From the IMG/VR virus record IMGVR_UViG_2778261162_000007: a DNA stretch of 47,425 bases, one strand, 5' to 3'. The notes under the pieces were generated by a model that was given only the letters and a program-made list of their open reading frames with translations, made no database searches and had not been told where the DNA came from. Below, one piece after another: positions 2,819-39,050 of this stretch. The DNA is from a virus. Taxonomy: Duplodnaviria > Heunggongvirae > Uroviricota > Caudoviricetes. Both the position numbers and the translations under genes were made by a program. Each line of letters starts with the position of its first letter. Positions within the stretch are counted from its first letter, which is position 1.

Positions 2819-5462
2819 TTGCATACTCCTTAGCCCAGCGGGGCAGTGATAACGTCTTAATAGCTGGCCATTCATCGGTATTTAGGCAGTCAGCCAGGGT
2901 CCGCAGATTGCGGTGATATTCCTGCTGGCCTGCCAGTTTTGCTTCTTCGCCCATCATGAAAATCTCAACCGGATAACGTCCGCATTCAACAGTTGTGCTG
3001 GCAACCAGAAAAACGAAAGTTGGCTGCACACCAAACTGTGCTTCATAACCGTCACTGTAGAATGCATCCTGAACGTGATAGCGGTAGTCGTAATAAGCCG
3101 TTTTGAATCGTTGAATATCCGCTGTGGTTTTCACGTCCATGATCCAGTGAAATTCAGGAATAATTTTGTCCGGACGGCACCGACACAAAATTCCTGTTTC
3201 CGGATCTTCCCAGTAAATTGATGATTCAGCGTGTCCGGCGCTTTCAACAAGCCATTGCCCCAGCGGCAAAGCCATAACGCTTTGATACATGAGTTCAATT
3301 TTCCGGCCTTCTTCCGCAGTGATAACCGTTTTTCCTGTGCTTGCGCATTCCATCAGAAACGCTTTCTCTTCTTCTTTTCCGGCGTTTGTACGGCGGTTAA
3401 ATTCAGGTGCTACGATAAAGCGGTTACTGAATTCTTCCGGTTCAAGTACCCGGCAGTGGAAAGCGGTTCCTAAATCGAGCGTTTTTGTCTTTGTAGTGTC
3501 CACGGGGGCATTTTTACGCCACAAATACAGTGCCGGAGTATCAGCAATGTCATCGAGCTGAGACTTACTGACACCGGGACCCGCGTGGTAATTCTCATTC
3601 GAAATTCCGTAATAAATACCTGGCTCTATGTCTTCTACGATTACGGGATCTGCGACTTCGCCAGTTTCATCACTGCAATCGCGATGCGGATCGCTGCCAG
3701 CATTCTCATTGTGCGGATGTTCAGCGCCTTCCATTTCCTCCGGATCTTTTTCCTTAGCTTCAACCTGATTCTCTTCACCGAATGTTTCCTGGTATGTTGC
3801 GTCGCCCATCACCGCACCACAGTCAGGGCAGTTATCCCCGCCAGTCTGACCGCAGGCATTGCAGACTATTTCCGGTTCCTGTTGCACTACTGGCTCAGGT
3901 TGTTTCGCATCCGGGCTGATTTTTTCCGTTTCTGGCTGGTTCTGGTACACAGAATCGCGAGTCTGGATCCCCTTAACCCATTTCGGATCGTTCGGGTCGC
4001 TAATTCCGTCAACAAATTCACCACGTGATGCAGCAAGCAATTTATCGGCATCGACAGGATTTTTTGATGGAATGTTTTTCCGGGCTTCCTGGAGTTCTGC
4101 CCGCAGTTCCTGATATTTCGCATCAACAGAATTTACCTGTGACTGAGCATCCAGCGGCTGCGTGTTCTGATGATGTTCAGTTGCATTCGGTTCCACTGTT
4201 TCAGCCGTTGCCTGTTCATCTGCCATTGCGCCAGATGGTTGTGGTTTTTCTTCATCGTCCTGTTTTCCTTCTTCTGTTACTCGCTGCGGCATCGGGGCCG
4301 AGGAGCGACCGCAGGCAATATCCACGATTTCCGGATCAGGGTTGGCATGATCGGTTTCAGTCAGTACTTTGTTCAGATATTCAGTGACGTGTGCGGGGAT
4401 GACCTCGATCCCAATTGGTGCTTCTTTTACGGACGCAACCACGATGGCGCGGGAATAATCCAGCCCACCAGGCATGGTGATGAATTTGTCGCGGAAAACA
4501 GAAAAGGGTGGTTTATTTTCAGCGATAATTTCCTCGACACGTTTAGCGTGTGCCGGATGAAGGTTATAAATGTCCACGTCCATTGAACGAGCCAGTACGC
4601 CAGTGGCTACGTCGCGCGCCAGTGACGTCAGATCGTGAACGAAACCTTCGCCGCGATCGGTGAGGTTCCCGCCGCCAGCATTAGCGCCGGAAGCCGTGCG
4701 CGTGATGCGTGAAACACGATTTCCTTTTCGCCATTCTTTTGTCAGAAGACCGCGATCAATGTGTTCGGTATCCAGCCAGGCTGAAATGAAATTCTTAAAT
4801 TCATAGGGCTGATGTTTTTTCGTGATAGAGAACACTGCCTTAATTGCATCAGTCAGGCGGAGCAGGGCGGCATTATCCAGAGTTGTCGGTTCTGCCATGC
4901 TGCGTATGGCCAACAGCAGATTCTGGACATAGCTGTTTTCCTGATCCATCTCAAGAGCAGTAATGTGTTTGCGTTGTTCACGGGTGGCATGATGCAGGTA
5001 TTTCCGATCCCCGGCTGCATACGTAAAAATGTGCAGAAGACGCTGTGTGAACCGCAAAGTGGCTACAGAGACTTCGCAATCCTGGCAATCCTCGTGGGCG
5101 TCTGCCTGCGCGTTTTCTTCCTGGCCTCCCGCCAGTTCTTTGGTTTCTTGAGCATTATCCTGGTGGTGAACGTCGTCTGGCGCTGCTCCCGGTTTTAGTT
5201 CCCAGGTCATTGAGTCTTTGCTGAGTTGATAGCGTTCACTCCAGGTAAAATCGATCTCACCTTCAGGGGGAAGGTCATTAACGACAGGAAAATTCGTGGC
5301 AACAGGTTTAAAATAGCTGCTCAGTTTTTTACCTGACTTAACGAGCAGGTAGTCCAGAGTGGCACAGGTCGATTCAAAATCGTCGCTTGCCCACAGGACG
5401 ACGTCAGGTTCACCGGATGATTTTTTCGCTTTCCGTAACAGGAAGAGTGGTTTTGTGCTCAT
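2811..5462 (-). CDS. recE: RecE exonuclease VIII (YqaJ-like C-terminal nuclease)
   Basis: 883-aa ORF directly upstream of recT; long acidic linker and C-terminal exonuclease region typical of RecE. Confidence 0.88.
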
Positions 5463-5563
5463 TGTTTTTTAACCTCAACTCAGATTAAAATTCGTTTTGT
5501 TCAGTGAATGATCTTGCCGGATACACACTGTTCATAGCCTGCGTATGGCGCAGGCTATTTCTT

Positions 5564-5839
5564 TCAGATTTCACCGCCTAATTTCATTGCAATCAGAGTT
5601 GCCAGAAATCCGGCTTTTTTTTCTGCGGGCAGATTCTTTCCGATGTGAACCAGGCACATTTTTGTGACACCTTCATCAAGTGTTTTTACGTTGCCTGATG
5701 GACCGTCGATATCAACCACAGTGAATGGGGTTTCTTTATTTTCTGTTTTAATCACGTAGCCAATACGCTTTCCTTCCAGATTAACCTCGTGAACAATGTC
5801 ATCGGTAGTTACAACAGTGGCTTCATAATTGGTAATCAT
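5564..5839 (-). CDS. racC: RacC-like protein
   Basis: MITNYEATVVTTDDIVHEVNLEGKRIGYVIK...; AAGGAG RBS upstream of the internal start. Confidence 0.6.
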   Translation of the reverse strand: MITNYEATVVTTDDIVHEVNLEGKRIGYVIKTENKETPFTVVDIDGPSGNVKTLDEGVTKMCLVHIGKNLPAEKKAGFLATLIAMKLGGEI

Positions 5840-7330: not shown

Positions 7331-7807
7331 TTAAGTTCCAGTTTTTGTGATGTTCTGGCTTTTCCGTTCAGATTCTAGAGCTTTCAGATACTTACCCACT
7401 TTCATTTCCATCGCTGCTATGTAGGCGCGAACATCGTGGTCAACCCAATCTGGTTCTGTAGCATTTCCAGATAACAGGAAAGCTACAATCGCTCTTATTT
7501 CATCAGAGGCTGCTTGATAAAGGTTGTTTATATCTAAAAGTTCACTTTTTGTATCTGAATTGGTGGGGGTTGGTATGGGGTATTCGTTAAGCCCCCAATG
7601 CTCTGGACCAACAACATCAGAAAAGAAACGCCATAATTCTGGAAGTTTATCTTTACTTATGGAGCCTTTCTTAATCCAGTCATAAATTGATGGTGGTTGG
7701 ATTTTGAAGTGGCGTGCGACCTCCGCCTTTGATTTGACGGATCCCGATGCGATTTTTTTGTTAATGGCCTGCTCTATCGCTCGGCCTAAGTCTTTACCAC
7801 TAAGCAT
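7331..7807 (-). CDS. racR: Prophage repressor RacR (HTH)
   Basis: 158-aa ORF MLSGKDLGRAIEQAINKKIASGSVKSKAEVARHFKIQPPSIYDWIKKG... with HTH; divergent from a cro-like gene. Confidence 0.85.
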   Translation of the reverse strand: MLSGKDLGRAIEQAINKKIASGSVKSKAEVARHFKIQPPSIYDWIKKGSISKDKLPELWRFFSDVVGPEHWGLNEYPIPTPTNSDTKSELLDINNLYQAASDEIRAIVAFLLSGNATEPDWVDHDVRAYIAAMEMKVGKYLKALESERKSQNITKTGT

Positions 7808-7930: not shown

Positions 7931-8227
7931 ATGAAAAAAGAGAACTATTCATTCAAGCAAGCTTGTGCTGTTGTCGGTGGGCAATCAGCAATGGCTAGGC
8001 TTTTAGGTGTATCACCTCCAAGCGTAAATCAATGGATCAAAGGGGTACGTCAATTGCCTGCCGAGAGATGTCCAGCAATTGAACGAGCAACAAGAGGTGA
8101 GGTTCTGTGCGAAGAGCTTCGTCCTGATATTGACTGGTCATATTTACGACGTTCGGCATGTTGTTCGCAGAATATGTCAGTGAAGCAACTAAATGACAGT
8201 AACAAATCCTCATTTGATCATACCTGA
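7931..8227 (+). CDS. ydaS: Cro-like HTH regulator YdaS
   Basis: MKKENYSFKQACAVVGGQSAMARLLGVSPPSVNQWIKG... HTH; divergent from the repressor. Confidence 0.85.
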   Translation: MKKENYSFKQACAVVGGQSAMARLLGVSPPSVNQWIKGVRQLPAERCPAIERATRGEVLCEELRPDIDWSYLRRSACCSQNMSVKQLNDSNKSSFDHT

Positions 8228-8249: not shown

Positions 8250-8672
8250 ATGAAAATCAAGCATGAGCACATCGAATCAGTGTTGTTTGCCCTGGCAGCC
8301 GAAAAAGGGCAGGCATGGGTAGCCAATGCAATTACTGAAGAATATCTGCGCCAGGGGGGCGGCGAATTGCCCCTGGTTCCAGGCAAGGACTGGAACAATC
8401 AGCAGAATATCTATCACCGTTGGTTGAAAGGTGAAACGAAAACGCAAAGAGAAAAAATTCAGAAGCTGATCCCAGCAATTCTGGCAATCCTTCCGCGCGA
8501 GTTGCGTCACCGACTCTGCATCTTCGATACCCTGGAACGCCGTGCATTACTGGCGGCGCAGGAAGCGTTAAGTACGGCAATTGATGCGCATGATGATGCA
8601 GTCCAGGCCGTTTACCGGAAAGCGCATTTCAGCGGCGGTGGTTCGTCCGGCGATTCTGTTGTTGTTCATTAA
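8250..8672 (+). CDS. ydaT: YdaT-like protein (putative toxin/CII-like partner of YdaS)
   Basis: 140-aa ORF MKIKHEHIESVLFALAAEKGQAWVANAITEEY... immediately downstream of ydaS. Confidence 0.8.
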   Translation: MKIKHEHIESVLFALAAEKGQAWVANAITEEYLRQGGGELPLVPGKDWNNQQNIYHRWLKGETKTQREKIQKLIPAILAILPRELRHRLCIFDTLERRALLAAQEALSTAIDAHDDAVQAVYRKAHFSGGGSSGDSVVVH

Positions 8673-8684
8673 GGTGATGTGGTG

Positions 8685-8981
8685 ATGGAAAAATATGAAC
8701 TGAAAAAATACCGACTTAAAACACTGGAAGGCGAAACATTGCTTCAGCGTATAGCCCGAAATGTTGCCTGGTATGCCATACGACTCTCTCTGCATCGCCA
8801 TCTTGTTAACGGGTATCCCTCGTCAACGCTGTTGTTCATCAATATCAAAGATAAAGAAAAAGCCGCAGAACACATTCGGTGGATGGAACTGGCGCAGGGA
8901 CAAGCTCTTGATATTGAGTATGGCGATGAGATCGACTACAGCAAAGCTCAACCGCTGCGCCACGTAATTTTTAGGGGGTGA
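8685..8981 (+). CDS. Hypothetical protein
   Basis: ORF downstream of ydaT; the ATG at 8685 follows GTG codons the ORF finder used as start. Confidence 0.4.
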   Translation: MEKYELKKYRLKTLEGETLLQRIARNVAWYAIRLSLHRHLVNGYPSSTLLFINIKDKEKAAEHIRWMELAQGQALDIEYGDEIDYSKAQPLRHVIFRG

Positions 8982-9233
8982 TTATGACATCTTTTCTTTT
9001 AGCTTTTGTAGGGCAACGATCAGTTCATCAATTTGGGTTGCATCCATTATCAACTCTAGTTTGTGATAAGCCCCGTAATTTAGCTCCTGTGTGTGGAATT
9101 CCTGGGCAAGTATTTTTACTCCTCCGCGATTGAGCATTCCTGAGGTGCTAAAAATTTTTGACTCGGTTCCAGTAATACTGTCCACCCAAAATTTTTGGGG
9201 GAATGGAGCAGACTTATCAAATGTAAAAGACAT
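8982..9233 (-). CDS. Hypothetical 83-aa protein, convergent AT-rich insert
   Basis: Minus-strand ORF with strong AGGAGG RBS; stop codon abuts the stop of the plus-strand 8685..8981 gene with zero spacing; visibly AT-rich. Confidence 0.5.
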   Translation of the reverse strand: MSFTFDKSAPFPQKFWVDSITGTESKIFSTSGMLNRGGVKILAQEFHTQELNYGAYHKLELIMDATQIDELIVALQKLKEKMS

Positions 9234-9312
9234 GTCGAACCTCCTTTGGTTCTGTTGATTGGGGAATCACAGATTATATCCGGAGGAAGGTTCGACACCA
9301 GATGAGGCAATT

Positions 9313-10437
9313 ATGGTTAAGGCTAAAAATATGCCAAATCCCATGCCAAAAACTAAGGCAAACAATGAGCCTTATCGCAAGGTAAAAATAACGATATGGG
9401 ATGATCCCAAATTTAGGGCGTTATCTCCTCTGCCTCCAAGTGGACAGAGTTTGTTTATTTATCTGCTGACCAGTCCATTTACCGGGATTATTCCTGGGTT
9501 GTTTAAAGCCGGGCGGGCAGCAATGGCTGAAGAGTTGGGGTGGGATATCGAAGCCTTTGACTTAGCCTTAGGCGAAGCCATGAATCTTGGCATGGTGAAA
9601 GCAGATATCAAAGCCAGAGTTTTTTGGCTCCCGAATGCTGCGAAACACAATCCGCCAAACTCGATAAATGTCATTAAATCCTGGGCAAAGGCATTCGCTT
9701 TAATTCCTGATTGTCCTCTCAAATGGGAGGCCAGGGAATCGCTGAGAGCCGCGTCCTATGGGGTTTCTGAGGCTTTGGGGATGGCATTCGATAAGGCAAT
9801 CCCTTTGCCTGAGGATAAGCCTAAGGATAAGGCTAACGCTTTGTCATGCGGTATCCAGATAACAGATAACAGATATATAAACCCCACACATAACGCGCGC
9901 GTGCGCGAGAGTGCTCCGGCCAGTGAGGCAAATGGCGTGCCGTTGCAGACAGCGGAACCTGATTACCTGGAAGGCCTGAACGAACCCATCGGGAAATTTC
10001 CGATGACTGATGGCTGGCATCCGTCGCTGGATTTTCGACGGCGGGCAGCTCTGTGGGGAGTGGCTCTGCCGGAGCCGGAATTTACACCAGCTGAACTTGC
10101 CGCCTTCCGGGACTACTGGGCAGCGGAGGGGAAAGTTTTCACGCAGGTTCAGTGGGAGCAGAAATTCGCCCGTCACGTAAATCACGTCAGGGCGCAGGTT
10201 AAACCAGTCAGCAAGGGGGTGAACCATGCAGCAGCACCAGGTGGCACCGCATCACGGGCAGTTCAGGAAATTCGGGCAGCACGTGAGCAGTGGGAACGTG
10301 AAAACGGATTTATCAGCGACGGAAACGGCCTGGAAGTTGTGGGAACTCATGGGGGAGGTTTATTCGAACCGCTGGACCCAGAAGAACGGGGCCGCACCTT
10401 CGAAGCTCTGGATTGCACAGATTGGTGCGATGACTGA
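9313..10437 (+). CDS. Putative replication-module protein (possibly YdaU-like)
   Basis: Start [34 protein letters not shown] chosen inside the longer ORF-track form; no Walker motif seen. Confidence 0.4.
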
Positions 10438-10891
10438 GCAGCAAATCCGACAGGTCTGCCGCCAGTGCATGGACCGCTGCCGGACGGGTGAAACATGGCC
10501 TCCGGACCTGGCTGAGTTTGTGGCGCTGATTTCGGAAAGCGGGGCCAATCCATTCGGTCTGACGGTGGATGCTGTGATGGAGGAGTACCGACGCTGGCGC
10601 AACAAGTCCTGGCGATACGACGGAAGCGATAAATACCCGTGGTCTCAGCCTGTGCTGTATCACATTTGCCTCGAGATGCGTTCAAAGGGGATTGAGCGCC
10701 AGATGACCGAAGGGGAGTTAAAACGACTTGCAGAACGGCAACTGGCGAAATGGGCAAAGCATGTTGGTGACGGCTTCAGCGTTCCGCCCGTACGGCGGCA
10801 ACTGGCAGCACCAGAACGCCCGTCGGGGCCAACACCAATTGAGTTGCTGAAACAGGAATATGAACGCCGGAAAGCGGCTGGTTTTGTTTGA
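10430..10891 (+). CDS. Hypothetical replication-module protein
   Basis: ATGACTGA start/stop overlap with the upstream gene (translational coupling); [30 protein letters not shown]... Confidence 0.4.
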
Positions 10892-10924
10892 GTTGATAAG
10901 TAATTTTACCGGGAGCAAATTTTA

Positions 10925-11686
10925 ATGGAGACTGTTTTTGACGCACTGAAAGCAATGGGAAAAGCCACGTCGGTAGAACTCGCTGCGCGACTTGATATCA
11001 GTCGTGAAGAGGTACTGAACGAGCTGTGGGAACTGAAAAAGGCTGGTTTCGTTGATAAAAGCGTATACACCTGGCGTGTGGCTGATAACAACGTTCAGCA
11101 GGAACAGCCAGAGCAGGCAGAACTGCCGGAAGAAACCACCACAGCAACAGTAGCGAAAATCTCAGAGTGCGATTTAACCGCGACGATTGAACAACGCGGA
11201 CCACAAACGGCTGATGAGCTGGCTACATTGTTTGGTACCACATCACGCAAAGTGGCTTCAACGCTGGCAATGGCAATCAGCAAAGGTCGTCTGATTCGCG
11301 TAAATCAGGGCGGTAAATTTCGTTACTGCATACCGGGCGATAATTTACCAGCAGAGCCGAAAGCAGCATCGGTAGCGGAAACTGATGGTAAGGCTTTTCC
11401 TCAGCCCGCAGGTGTTGCGTTACCAGTACAGGAGGCTGCAACACAGGAAGAAATTAAAACAGATACTGTAGCGGACATTGTGCAGTCGTTGCCATCGTTT
11501 ACCGAAACGCGGGCGGATGATTTGATTTTGCCATCGCTGCATCTGGCAAACCGCAAACTGCGTCGGGCGAAAAGCCATGTCCAGAAGTGGGAGCGTGTCT
11601 GCGCCGCGCTGCGGGAGTTGAACAAGCACCGGGATATTGTTCGCCAGATTACTGATTCTTCCCGCTGTGTTGTATCGGAAAAGTGA
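10925..11686 (+). CDS. Hypothetical protein with two winged-helix-like segments
   Basis: 253-aa [33 protein letters not shown] and [32 protein letters not shown] look HTH-like. Confidence 0.4.
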
Positions 11687-12124
11687 TTGCCGGAGGCGCT
11701 TATGGCAAAAGTATTTACACAAGAAGAGCGGGAAAAAATTAAGGGGCAGGTTGTTGAACTCGTGCGCCAGAATGGGCGCGAGACGTTACGACAACTTGAA
11801 GCTAAGACAGGTGCGACAAGATATTTAATGAGCGTTCTCGCCAGAGAGCTGGTTGCCAGTGGCGATGTATATAACTCCGGCTACGGGCTATTTCCCTCTG
11901 AACAGGCTCGTAAGGACTGGCAAAACGCCCGCAAAAAACTATCGAGGGCAAAGGTGAAGAAACCTGCTGTAGTTGATCCGGACCTTATCTGGTCATTACC
12001 AGACGGAGAAATACGCCGCTATGACAGGCGTCTGAATATAATCTGTCGCGAGTGCCGGAAGAGCGAAGTCATGCAGCGTGTACTGGCGTTCTATCAGGGT
12101 AATTTTCAGGATGTGCTGTTGTGA
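11687..12124 (+). CDS. Hypothetical protein
   Basis: 145-aa ORF adjacent to the previous gene's stop. Confidence 0.35.
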   Translation: MPEALMAKVFTQEEREKIKGQVVELVRQNGRETLRQLEAKTGATRYLMSVLARELVASGDVYNSGYGLFPSEQARKDWQNARKKLSRAKVKKPAVVDPDLIWSLPDGEIRRYDRRLNIICRECRKSEVMQRVLAFYQGNFQDVLL

Positions 12125-12284
12125 GCCAAATTAACAATCAGGGAACTGCGTGAACTGAAAGAGAAATCATAATCCAAATCTGAATAATTAAATTTAGCAC
12201 TGTAAATAAAATTTAATCCTTAACCGGAGGGGGGGCTGCACCCTCAAAATATTAGGAGGCGGCCCGAAAGGGCGGTAATGAAAA

Positions 12285-12788
12285 ATGACTGAATTAACCA
12301 AAAAGCAATTAATCGAAGAAGCTAAATTAAAAATAGCGATTGAGAAATGCCACCCCAATTCAGGGATGGCATGGGTAGAGGGCGAATTATTCAAAATTGC
12401 TCTGGCATCTCTGGAAGCAGAGCCAGTTGGTGATTTTTATGAATACAAACCGGATGACTGGTATCAGCGTTCGGCTGGAGATAAAGCGCCAAAAAGGACG
12501 CCATCCTATGCCGTTTTTCCAGCGCCCGTAGTGCCGGAAGAAATGGATTTGCTTACATGCCATCTCGATGGTGTAACTGAAACATATGCTGAGGGATGGA
12601 ACGCTTGCCGCGCTGCCCTGCTTCAGGGCAAAGGGGAGCCCGGGAAACAAGTTCGCGAATTGACAATGCTGGTTAAACAATTGGTTAGTCAACTTAAGAA
12701 AGCGAAACCGGGCTGCAAATTGCCGGATAAAGTGATGGACTACCTGGAGCGAAGCGGACTTATAAGCGTGGAGGATGTTTTACGATGA
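12285..12788 (+). CDS. Hypothetical protein
   Basis: 167-aa ORF preceded by a small GNRA-type hairpin and RBS. Confidence 0.4.
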   Translation: MTELTKKQLIEEAKLKIAIEKCHPNSGMAWVEGELFKIALASLEAEPVGDFYEYKPDDWYQRSAGDKAPKRTPSYAVFPAPVVPEEMDLLTCHLDGVTETYAEGWNACRAALLQGKGEPGKQVRELTMLVKQLVSQLKKAKPGCKLPDKVMDYLERSGLISVEDVLR

Positions 12789-12908: not shown

Positions 12909-13682
12909 TTAGAACTGTTCATTGCCATCGAGGTTAGGTAGCATAATTTTTTCAATCAAGGCGAGAGCCTTTTTGTCCCGGTCAGCGAAGTATTTCGGGG
13001 CATATTGCGGCAACCAAATATTGTTAAAATGTTCTTTGAAATCTGCTAAATATTCATTTGGGTACAGCCTTGCAGGGTATACGCGACCATCGGGATATTC
13101 ATGGTCATAGGTAGGGAATGTTTTGGGTTCTACGTTTCTATTATCTCTTAACCATTGTGAAAATACTCTTCCTTGTGAAATGTCAGGAACCATTTTTTCT
13201 GGGAGTGTGTACCCTGCTTGTTCAAGAGGTGCAACCAAGTTGAATGTCAGTTCATTAAGAATAGAAAAGTGCGTGTGAGGAATTCTACTACGATTAACCA
13301 TGTACCGTTTTAAATGTACAGGCATTTCTGCTGTAGTTCTTTCCCCTGACATCCATTCACGAACCCATCTTGAAACCTGGACTGCAAATTTGGGCGATAG
13401 CCACTGCGCTAGATTAATAGCGATGTCAGGATGCACCCATGTCCCTTGGTTTTCAGGTCTTCCACCTTTAAATGATTGAATTAACTCCGATATGGGAATT
13501 CCCATATCGCGTGATAATTCGTCAAAAAACTCTTGAGTAGTTTTGAGTCTAGTGTAATCAGAGAGCAGTTTGCCCGCAGTTCTACACATTGATGTGGCGT
13601 TTATGTAACCATCTTTGGCACGTAAATGTATTATTTCGCCGTCAATTTCACGAGAAATCAAAGATAATTGAAAGGATGTCAT
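12909..13682 (-). CDS. KilA-N domain protein
   Basis: N-terminal region ...IHLRAKDGYINATSMCRTAGKLL...GGRPENQGTWVHPDIAINLAQWLSPKFAVQVSRWV matches the KilA-N pattern. Confidence 0.7.
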   Translation of the reverse strand: MTSFQLSLISREIDGEIIHLRAKDGYINATSMCRTAGKLLSDYTRLKTTQEFFDELSRDMGIPISELIQSFKGGRPENQGTWVHPDIAINLAQWLSPKFAVQVSRWVREWMSGERTTAEMPVHLKRYMVNRSRIPHTHFSILNELTFNLVAPLEQAGYTLPEKMVPDISQGRVFSQWLRDNRNVEPKTFPTYDHEYPDGRVYPARLYPNEYLADFKEHFNNIWLPQYAPKYFADRDKKALALIEKIMLPNLDGNEQF

Positions 13683-14204: not shown

Positions 14205-14360
14205 ATGAAGCAGCAAAAGGCGATGTTAATCGCCCTGATCGTCATCTGTTTAACCGTCATAGTGACGGCACTGGTAACGAGGAAAGACCTCTGTGAGGTA
14301 CGAATCCGAACCGGGCAGACGGAGGTCGCTGTCTTCACAGCTTACGAACCTGAGGAGTAA
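14205..14360 (+). CDS. Hok/Gef-family type I toxin (51 aa)
   Basis: MKQQKAMLIALIVICLTVIVTALVTRKDLCEVRIRTGQTEVAVFTAYEPEE closely resembles Gef/Hok; AGGAGAAG RBS; sits in a 1.1-kb AT-rich non-coding island. Confidence 0.85.
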   Translation: MKQQKAMLIALIVICLTVIVTALVTRKDLCEVRIRTGQTEVAVFTAYEPEE

Positions 14361-21133: not shown

Positions 21134-21136
21134 CTA

Positions 21137-22228
21137 ATGAGCAGACCGGACTGGGGGGCGTTGCAGCAGGAATATATTGCTGAATACACCCGCTCCGGTG
21201 TATCTCCGGTGGCATGGTGTGAGGCAAGGGGACTGAATTACGCAACAGCCCGTCGTTACATCAAAAAACCTCCGAAAAATGCGCAGACAGAAATGCGCAA
21301 AACTGCGCAACAAAGTGCGCAGAAAAAATCTGCGCAGACTGCGCAAAAGCGGAACGGAAAATCTCAGAAAAAAAAGCCAGTATCCGATGCGTGCCTGAAT
21401 GAGGGCGACGCGGAGGAATTTTCGTTCTGCCCCGATGAATTCGGCATTTCTGACCAGCAGGCTAAGTTTGCGATGCTTGTTGCTCAGGGGAAAAAGCCGA
21501 CAGAGGCATACCGACTGGCTGGTTATGAGGGGCAAGGTGCGACAGCTAACAGCAACGCCAGCCGTATGCTTAGAAATGCCAGGGTTTATCGTGCTATCAG
21601 CTACTTCCGCAATCAGTATCAGAAACGCTATACCGCAGACCTGGATTTACTGGTGAGTCAGTTGATGGCTATTGTCCAGGCCGACCCCAATCAGTTGGCA
21701 CAATTTCGCCGTGTTAACTGCCGTTATTGCTGGGGCGAGAATCATCTCTACCAGTGGCGTGATATTGCAGAATTCGATAAGGCAGCGGCACAGGCCTCCA
21801 GAGATGGCAAACCCGAGCCGGAATATGGAGGCCTCGGCTTTGTTGATAACGCCATACCCAATCCGGATTGTCCGAAGTGCTGCGGTGAGGGAACGGGACA
21901 GCTTTATATGGCTGATACCACTCTGCTTGATGGGGATGTGCGACAATTATATGCAGGGGCAAAGCTCGGGAAATTTGGTGTTGAGATCCTGCTGGAGGAT
22001 AAGGCTGCCGCCCGGCGCGAACTTATCAAGCTGATAATGGCGACGAAAGGAAGTTCTGCTGGTGGTGCAACTGACAGTCGCAATGATCTGGAGCTTGAAG
22101 GACTGAGGCTTCGCAACGAAAAGCTGCGCACTGAGATTGAAAACCTCAAAAAAGGCGTGGGTGGTGAGAATAACGAAATAATTATCCACAACTCTCTGCC
22201 GATGCCGGGAGTGGATAATGTCGATTGA
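21137..22228 (+). CDS. Terminase small subunit
   Basis: Central ...QQAKFAMLVAQGKKPTEAYRLAGYEGQGATANSNASRMLRNARVYRAI matches the small-terminase HTH pattern; immediately upstream of the large terminase. Confidence 0.7.
   Translation: MSRPDWGALQQEYIAEYTRSGVSPVAWCEARGLNYATARRYIKKPPKNAQTEMRKTAQQSAQKKSAQTAQKRNGKSQKKKPVSDACLNEGDAEEFSFCPDEFGISDQQAKFAMLVAQGKKPTEAYRLAGYEGQGATANSNASRMLRNARVYRAISYFRNQYQKRYTADLDLLVSQLMAIVQADPNQLAQFRRVNCRYCWGENHLYQWRDIAEFDKAAAQASRDGKPEPEYGGLGFVDNAIPNPDCPKCCGEGTGQLYMADTTLLDGDVRQLYAGAKLGKFGVEILLEDKAAARRELIKLIMATKGSSAGGATDSRNDLELEGLRLRNEKLRTEIENLKKGVGGENNEIIIHNSLPMPGVDNVD
21280..21345. repeat. Cluster of six palindromic TGCGCA hexamers inside terS (candidate pac/TerS-binding site)
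   Basis: TGCGCA at about 21280, 21294, 21304, 21316, 21331 and 21340, spaced 9-15 bp. Confidence 0.5.
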
Positions 22229-38901: not shown

Positions 38902-39050
38902 ATCACAGTTTTATGATAAAACTTTTACCTTGGTTTGGAGTGCTGTAGAGAGATATTTTAGGGGGGCGAGTAATTTTCTAAGCTGGAGCATATTGACATA
39001 TATTATTTCGGATTTGCAAAATACATATTGTTACCATGGAGGAGACAAGC

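Follow-up and report, generated by a model that had tools for sequence, protein, structure and literature searches.

The five-gene block and its initiator and loader

The stretch of DNA analysed here, referred to throughout as the window, is the 47,425-nucleotide (nt) IMG/VR virus record IMGVR_UViG_2778261162_000007 of the Caudoviricetes, and the subject of this analysis is a block of five genes at 9313-12788 that lies downstream of a racR/ydaS/ydaT immunity region. An initial annotation, made from the sequence by eye, had described this block as an early replication region with no recognisable helicase or helicase loader. The open reading frame (ORF) listing bears out the five plus-strand genes that it placed here, all five ORFs are intact in the window, and the listing agrees in gene order with what RefSeq annotates at a 99.8%-identical locus in Escherichia coli A17. 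The genes and their closest family assignments are as follows (lengths in amino acids, aa).

9313-10437, plus strand: gene 1, replication initiator (replisome organizer), 374 aa; ATG at 9313 with GAGG 5 nt upstream
10226 (or 10430)-10891, plus strand: gene 2, lambda-P-type helicase loader, 221 aa; PF06992, phrog_109
10925-11686, plus strand: gene 3, DUF1627 (YdaW-like), 253 aa; PF07789
11702-12124, plus strand: gene 4, DUF977/LygF, Ren-like, 140 aa; PF06163; ATG at 11702 with GGAGG 5 nt upstream
12285-12788, plus strand: gene 5, phrog_660 protein, 167 aa; phrog_660 at 6e-51

Profile and structure-based searches of the kind that the initial annotation had proposed as a check place genes 1 and 2 in standard initiator and loader families. 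The statement that none of the five proteins matches lambda P is contradicted by gene 2, which scores 60 bits against Pfam PF06992 (Phage_lambda_P; gathering score 26) and is covered over aa 19-220 by phrog_109, “P-like helicase loader”, at 4e-62. In phmmer searches, aa 70-194 of gene 2 align with residues 81-203 of lambda P in chain 8v9t (E 4e-4), and the 114-aa lambda P fragment 8v9s also matches (E 2e-3). Residues 81-203 of lambda P span the whole of domain III, with part of domain II before it and the beginning of domain IV after it (domain limits from PMC12661323), and gene 2 has homology to domains III/IV, which contact DnaB, in the solved structure of lambda P. The kinship was missed by eye because pairwise identity is just 23% (BLASTP, over 109 aa, E 3e-7). 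In addition, the RefSeq name of gene 2 is “replication protein P”, and the gene lies directly downstream of the initiator in an early rightward operon, as P does in lambda. By sequence, gene 2 is a true, though distant, homologue of lambda P.

Gene 1 matches phrog_1408, “replication initiation protein”, at 1e-90 and phrog_3992, “primosomal protein”, at 4e-55. A 100% identical 374-aa protein at NCBI is named “replication protein”, and homologues of gene 1 are named “phage replisome organizer” there. As the initial annotation had noted, the protein has no similarity to lambda O (BLASTP E > 1), and a Pfam search at E <= 1 returned DnaT only, with no match to Phage_rep_O. Two conserved regions can be delimited in the protein.

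9313-9789, plus strand: conserved N-terminal domain, aa 1-159, “type A”, a presumed origin-binding winged helix
9985-10197, plus strand: DnaT-like three-helix single-stranded DNA (ssDNA)-binding domain, aa 225-295; PF17948

Residues 13-160 are nearly invariant across 25 initiator homologues. The N-terminal domain is matched by phrog_1701, “DnaD-like helicase loader”, at 5e-13 over aa 39-151 of the 392-aa ORF, and by phrog_6251 at 4e-4. The Prokaryotic Genome Annotation Pipeline (PGAP) calls the initiator of strain A17 from 9523 as a 304-aa protein, cutting off the conserved residues from K13; this start appears too late, because the residues upstream of it, from K13 onward, are nearly invariant among the homologues.

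The DnaT-like domain scores 63 bits against PF17948 (cutoff 25), matches PDB entries 6aep and 4ou6 at 1e-20 with ~58-60% identity, and is superimposed by Foldseek with template modelling (TM) scores of 0.89-0.93 and a root-mean-square deviation of ~1 Å. Gene 1 is not a DnaT orthologue, because it does not reach the cutoff of the NCBIfam DnaT equivalog NF002770 (96.5 bits against 201), of which only profile positions 81-166 are matched. Some other initiators keep the N-terminal domain and the C-terminal tail found in the window and have the DnaT-like domain replaced by an unrelated middle segment; a P-like gene that overlaps the initiator gene comes next in these loci too. The initiator thus belongs to a non-O family that is little studied, since it is not lambda O, its N-terminal domain lies outside Pfam, and no paper on DnaT-like phage initiators was found in the literature search made here.

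The initial annotation was right that Walker A/B motifs are absent from all five proteins, as a regular-expression scan confirms; elsewhere in the window Walker A is matched just twice, far from the block, at 21134-22225 and 38997-40208. It was also right that a DnaC-like YdaV is missing, as none of the five proteins matches DnaC/IstB-like AAA+ profiles, in a search for which YdaV of MN652886, used as the positive control, matches IstB_IS21 at 2e-19. Neither a helicase nor an AAA+ loader is encoded by the element itself. This is the expected result, because lambda P has no ATPase fold; it is a non-ATPase loader whose four domains grip DnaB (PMC12661323). A module of this type can do without encoding a helicase or an AAA+ protein.

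The idea that the element lacks a helicase loader and follows an unknown, non-lambda replication strategy draws on the missing Walker motifs, the lack of likeness to lambda O, the absence of a DnaC-like protein and a gene 1 N-terminal domain outside Pfam. Set against this, gene 2 is a member of the lambda P family above the Pfam threshold and aligns to a solved lambda P structure, the missing Walker motifs are uninformative since lambda P is no ATPase, and gene 1 falls in PHROG initiator families with high significance, so that we consider this idea extremely improbable. What stands of the remark that the replication strategy is unclear is that the initiator is of a non-O, little-studied though widely annotated type; what does not stand is the lack of an assignment, as profile searches give families for both loader and initiator. 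The block is very probably an ordinary lambdoid-prophage module of initiator and P-type loader, of a kind already known and with proteins already named publicly, and the element would replicate by the textbook lambdoid scheme, with a P-type loader hijacking host DnaB. Parts of the block were matched in 4631 of 5426 complete genomes; most E. coli genomes carry prophage modules of this kind.

The loader start and the overlap with the initiator gene

Both PGAP and the initial annotation start the loader at 10430, giving a protein of 153 aa. The P frame is open from an ATG at 10226, preceded 6 nt upstream by the Shine-Dalgarno (SD) sequence AAGGGGG, and from this start the product is 221 aa long. 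The longer form would overlap the initiator gene over a considerable length.

10226-10437, plus strand: out-of-frame overlap of 212 nt in the +1 frame, coding for the initiator C-terminal tail and the loader N-terminal 70 codons

Several lines of comparative evidence bear on which of the two starts is used. In tblastn searches, ten loci from Escherichia albertii, Citrobacter, Enterobacter, Pluralibacter, Salmonella and Scandinavium showed 66-91% conservation over the entire 221 aa. Both frames of the overlap are open in 11 of 11 sequences, with 2-6 stops in the third frame, and the ATG and SD (GGAGG/GGGGG) at the long start are kept in all 11 loci, which span several genera. The overlap measures 212-215 nt in at least six genera and 212 nt in every one of 74 IMG/VR E. 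coli prophage loci; two more divergent loci have overlaps of 215 and 191 nt, for which gene callers gave products of 154 and 116 aa.

The loader N-terminal 69 aa are conserved at the protein level, and the substitutions in the overlap carry the same signal. Between 10325 and 10434, variability at the third position of the P frame is 0.376, against 0.080 at the third position of the initiator frame (permutation p = 1e-4), a pattern that is that of the loader-only region; the first half of the overlap gives a mixed pattern. Across genera, residues 47-56 and some others do not change in the P frame, while those of the initiator frame do.

That the loader is instead the short 153-aa protein, with the upstream frame a by-product of initiator coding and no long overlap, would fit the RefSeq annotation of the 153-aa form on many contigs (NCBI holds both the 221-aa and the 153-aa form) and the conservation of ATG 10430, which encodes Met in all loci and overlaps the initiator stop as in translational coupling; gene callers also pick short forms elsewhere, and both forms could be made. 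This is nevertheless improbable, given that substitutions in 10325-10434 follow the P frame and cannot be told apart from those of the P-only region, that the invariant P-frame residues just described face a varying initiator frame, that a strong SD and ATG stand at 10226 in all 11 loci with no good SD before 10430, and that the long overlap recurs in the divergent loci. Moreover, with its start near lambda P residue 80, the 153-aa form would be without domain I and the greater part of domain II; removal of residues 9-85 from lambda P reportedly disrupts its complex with DnaB (PMC12661323). On these comparisons, the loader most likely starts at 10226, not 10430.

The initial annotation had counted two ATGA-coupled junctions among the five genes. 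There is a single overlapping junction, ATGACTGA at 10430-10437, which is 8 nt long if gene 2 is started at 10430; the remaining junctions of the block are gaps of 33, 15 and 160 nt. RefSeq-style annotation appears to truncate both genes, starting the initiator at 9523 for 9313 and the loader at 10430 for 10226, and such truncated annotations would mislead protein expression or complex prediction.

Two further observations concern how this family is represented in public collections. Gene callers in other collections give loaders of 116-180 aa for the same family. The 482-position profile phrog_15931 matches both the initiator C-terminal half (9874-10434) and the loader (10235-10888) at overlapping profile coordinates; it seems to derive from ORF calls that had been joined across the overlap. 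The notion that this profile signals a fusion protein in the window was set aside, the match being taken as an artefact of such fused calls.

Mosaic initiators and a candidate origin in the linker

Loci picked by the loader alone all share the initiator C-terminal module, from the motif NP(T/S) onward. This one C-terminal module and its loader are joined to at least four to five unrelated N-terminal types, namely type A of the window, an HTH_36-like type, a DUF1376 type and at least two others. When the prophage loci were clustered by type with the window sequence added, 69 of 74 could be typed, in clusters of 32, 19, 15 and 3, the cluster of 15 being type A (14 loci and the window). The mosaic breakpoint falls at ~9875-9880, and similarity to the PPompW/Stx2a phages begins at ~9875. 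A junction of the form TTAAACCCC[A/T]C[A/T]C[A/T]TA, at 9878-9893, is conserved in all initiator types between the variable and the shared halves, and is a candidate for either a mosaic recombination junction or a functional origin element.

The initial annotation had proposed looking for iterons or an AT-rich origin within 9313-10437, and candidate repeats and an AT-rich stretch are indeed found there, at 9790-9893. The features of this candidate origin are listed below.

9790-9907: candidate origin in the initiator linker, with repeats and an AT-rich stretch
9790, 9814 and 9826: GATAAGSC repeats
9856-9876: three copies of CAGATAA
9854-9893: AT-rich stretch, the AT-richest interior segment of the initiator gene
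from 9880: conserved junction AACCCCACACATAAC
9894-9907: GC-rich palindromic CGCGCGCGTGCGCG

GATAAGSC occurs nine times in the window, against 2.5 expected, and three of the copies lie within 44 nt. The repeats recur in type-A loci from other genera, where the DNA motif is kept while the order of the motifs and the encoded peptide differ. Whatever the N-terminal type, this place holds a repeat array peculiar to that type, after which come an AT-rich (A)CAGATA/AAAGAT stretch and the same junction. The arrays of four types are as follows.

Type A (the window): GGATAAGGC, three copies
HTH_36-like type: ACCCAAAAACGG, four to five copies, or a 19-mer, four copies at 30-nt spacing
Type C (the third type): GTCACGAC, four copies at 10-nt spacing
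DUF1376 type: TGTTCAAAC, three copies at 33-nt spacing

The layout of repeats and AT-rich stretch mirrors that of ori-lambda, and we therefore place the putative origin at ~9790-9907, inside the initiator linker. Alternatively, the linker repeats could be low-complexity coding or recombination scars, with the origin elsewhere, either in the AT-rich region at 8690-9260 upstream or downstream of the loader. The window itself lends this some weight: its type-A repeats are the weakest of the four arrays (three copies of 8-9 nt), they fall on repeated D-K-A/P-K-D-K codons in a Lys/Asp/Ala-rich peptide linker and so could be coding repeats, and several 40-nt windows upstream are equally or more AT-rich. 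The comparison across loci points the other way: in four unrelated N-terminal types a different and clearer array occupies this position, always with AT-rich DNA and the common junction behind it; where mosaic breakpoints fall, the repeats go with the N-terminal domain; between genera, order and peptide change but the DNA motif persists; and the layout matches ori-lambda within gene O. An origin outside the linker is a possibility that we hold to be the less probable one, and a linker origin at ~9790-9907 is preferred.

A DnaA-dependent origin was also considered and is unsupported, as there is one DnaA box with one mismatch, at 9810, and no enrichment. Apart from the repeats above, the hexamer TAAGGC occurs six times within 9318-9833 (516 nt), out of 25 copies in the 47-kb window, with three at the initiator 5′ end (9318, 9354 and, on the minus strand, 9369). 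These copies may be extra initiator-binding or autoregulatory sites, or just Lys-Ala codons.

Taken with the family assignments, these observations suggest how the module could work. Genes 1 and 2 would form a lambda-style two-protein module under rightward transcription from the racR/ydaS/ydaT immunity region. The type-specific, winged-helix-like N-terminal domain of the initiator would bind the repeats in its own coding sequence at ~9790-9850, and the AT-rich segment at ~9854-9893 would melt. The C-terminal module, made up of the DnaT-like ssDNA-binding domain and an acidic tail, would hold the ssDNA and contact the N-terminal part of the loader, and the 221-aa P-type loader would then bring host DnaB without using ATP. 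The DNA target of the initiator, the linker as origin, the contact between the C-terminal module and the loader, and the recruitment of DnaB are all inferred.

With moderate confidence, we further propose that this initiator/P-type-loader family is widespread and encodes ~70 conserved loader residues out of frame in the initiator tail, in a dual-coding segment of ~190-215 nt. The overlap would lock the loader-facing end of the initiator and the loader together against recombination, while N-terminal domain and iterons swap at the junction TTAAACCCCACACATAAC, and through the DnaT-like domain these initiators would act as origin-specific, primosome-like adaptors. If true, standard pipelines overlook the dual-coding segment and annotate loaders cut to 116-154 aa. 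In addition, the map of N-terminal domain and repeats against C-terminal module and loader yields testable origin candidates.

A number of results count against parts of the scheme of initiator and P-type loader set out above. A Pfam scan of the 25 full-length initiator homologues at E <= 1 returned nothing for the N-terminal domain. The AlphaFold2 (AF2) model of the initiator is confident only for the DnaT domain and a helical segment at 110-165; in its N-terminal part it places three helices and two beta strands at 42-105 with low predicted local distance difference test (pLDDT) values of ~35-65, and Foldseek matches for this part are weak (GntR, MarR and DtxR, E 0.2-0.8). These matches, which are not significant, suggest a winged helix for the N-terminal domain, a fold that we do not claim. 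For the loader, an hhalign comparison of nine P-like sequences with lambda P aligned only 89-195 to 96-203 and left the first ~88 aa unaligned; homology of this part to lambda P domains I/II rests on the coverage by phrog_109 and is not shown directly. Literature searches on DnaT-like phage initiators, on ydaU/ydaV/DUF1627/DUF977 and on Rac-SA53 brought up no functional work on this module. A DnaT-less homologue with the same N-terminus still precedes an overlapping P-like gene, and a link between DnaT domain and loader is thus not obligatory. The candidate role of the DnaT domain in docking the loader is weakened by this homologue, whose P-like gene has the same overlap; the shared initiator tail, encoded in the overlapped segment, is a likelier site of docking.

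Prophages of the Rac type are often cryptic, and the module could be an inert remnant of a defective Rac-like prophage, having ceased to drive replication in this host. In strain A17, the 99.8%-identical prophage has a recE pseudogene with an internal stop and a frameshifted neighbouring gene (~5259-5839 in window coordinates, seen in A17), which suggests that the A17 prophage is defective; given this recE pseudogene, the copy in the window may never replicate autonomously. We nevertheless judge an inert remnant unlikely, since the five ORFs are intact, the replication genes are under purifying selection across genera, and a complete phage genome, Rac-SA53, carries this module too. The question touches the activity of the module and not its identity, and is compatible with the assignment of genes 1 and 2 to an initiator and a P-type loader.

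Neighbouring genes and relation to known replication modules

Genes 3-5 are accessory genes, placed where lambda carries the ren/nin genes. Gene 3 matches PF07789 (DUF1627) at 4e-98, with 326 bits against a cutoff of 28.1, and phrog_630 at 1e-130, and has 2530 homologues. The initial annotation had seen two winged-helix-like segments in this protein; the two segments are weakly supported, by many winged helix-turn-helix Pfam matches below threshold at aa 4-46 and by a FeoC-like one at aa 84-130. A low-confidence AF2 model gives three helices at 4-39, three helices and a beta-hairpin at 82-134 and a long C-terminal helix, and Foldseek returned weak MarR-type matches only. Gene 3 is presumably an accessory DNA-binding protein.

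Gene 4 matches PF06163 (DUF977) at 4e-31 (108 bits against 22.1) and phrog_142, “Ren-like exclusion protein”, at 5.5e-48; it shares a C-terminal motif with lambda Ren at 55% identity (E 2e-6), and its position downstream of the P-like gene is that of ren in lambda. It is a Ren-like protein as judged from these matches. Gene 5 is set off from the block by a 160-nt spacer, is named “hypothetical protein” in RefSeq, has no match in Pfam, NCBIfam or PADLOC, and is probably not a replication gene.

Upstream of the block, the following genes were placed.

7331-7807, minus strand: racR (ORF listing and A17 annotation)
7931-8227, plus strand: ydaS (ORF listing and A17 annotation)
8250-8672, plus strand: ydaT; PF06254
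8685-8981, plus strand: ORF without a family, between ydaT and the initiator
8982-9233, minus strand: ORF without a family, between ydaT and the initiator

Contrary to the initial annotation, the five genes do not directly follow ydaT, as the last two ORFs stand between. Neither of them has a match in Pfam, PHROGs, NCBIfam or PADLOC, and PADLOC found no defence-system match among genes 3-5 and these two orphan ORFs. The minus-strand ORF 8982-9233 sits inside the rightward early operon, and its start is flanked by a sigma-70-like promoter on the minus strand (9337-9310) and by a perfect 10-nt inverted repeat (9233-9242/9288-9297). This looks like a moron-type insertion.

Downstream of the block, a minus-strand gene at 12909-13682 encodes a 257-aa KilA-N protein that matches phrog_6287 over its full length at 3e-89, PADLOC BstA at 3e-21 and Pfam KilA-N at 4e-27. 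This KilA-N/BstA-family gene, which faces the replication block, likely encodes a prophage anti-phage abortive-infection defence. A strong terminator-like hairpin lies at 12903-12879, and a plus-strand ORF at 14205-14360 encodes a 51-aa Hok/Gef-type toxin, annotated as hokD in the near-identical A17 locus.

Among the closest known systems is the lambda O-P module. In both, an initiator gene is followed by a loader gene downstream of cro/cII-like genes, and then by a Ren-like gene; neither of the two window proteins is an ATPase by the regular-expression scan; and the initiator has a presumed specificity domain, a linker that holds repeats and AT-rich DNA, and a C-terminal module passed on together with the loader. 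Ori-lambda has four iterons and an AT-rich region in the linker of gene O, and the candidate origin of the window lies in the equivalent part. Unlike lambda O, the window initiator, which is unrelated to it in sequence, carries a DnaT-like ssDNA-binding domain in its C-terminal half; the overlap of the two genes is 212 nt out of frame in place of 4 nt in lambda; and the first ~88 aa of the loader are unaligned with lambda P.

The C-terminal domain of the initiator resembles that of E. coli DnaT, the primosomal protein I of PriA-PriB-DnaT restart, with 58-60% identity and TM ~0.9 to 4ou6/6aeq, whereas its N-terminal domain is phage-type and its gene lies in a prophage early operon beside a P-type loader. 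The Rac YdaU-YdaV system (MN652886) shares with the window the immunity region of repressor, cro-like gene and ydaT as well as the downstream DUF1627 (ydaW) and DUF977 (lygF) genes, but has an IstB/DnaC-type AAA+ loader and a YdaU without a DnaT domain, where the window has a P-type loader. In Rac-SA53, a complete phage genome, the P-type module is that of the window, and “ydaV” is merely the label given to the P-like gene there. Phage replisome organizers, an annotation class of which the SPP1 G38P type is an example, include proteins with DnaD-like or DUF1376 N-termini; the window initiator resembles them in the PHROG matches of its N-terminal domain to DnaD-like loader and replisome-organizer families and in having sister proteins with DUF1376 or HTH_36 N-termini on the same C-terminal module, and differs in that its own N-terminal type has no Pfam model. 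Set beside these systems, the long overlap, the truncated annotations and the origin candidates are useful refinements of a known scheme and do not amount to a new kind of system.

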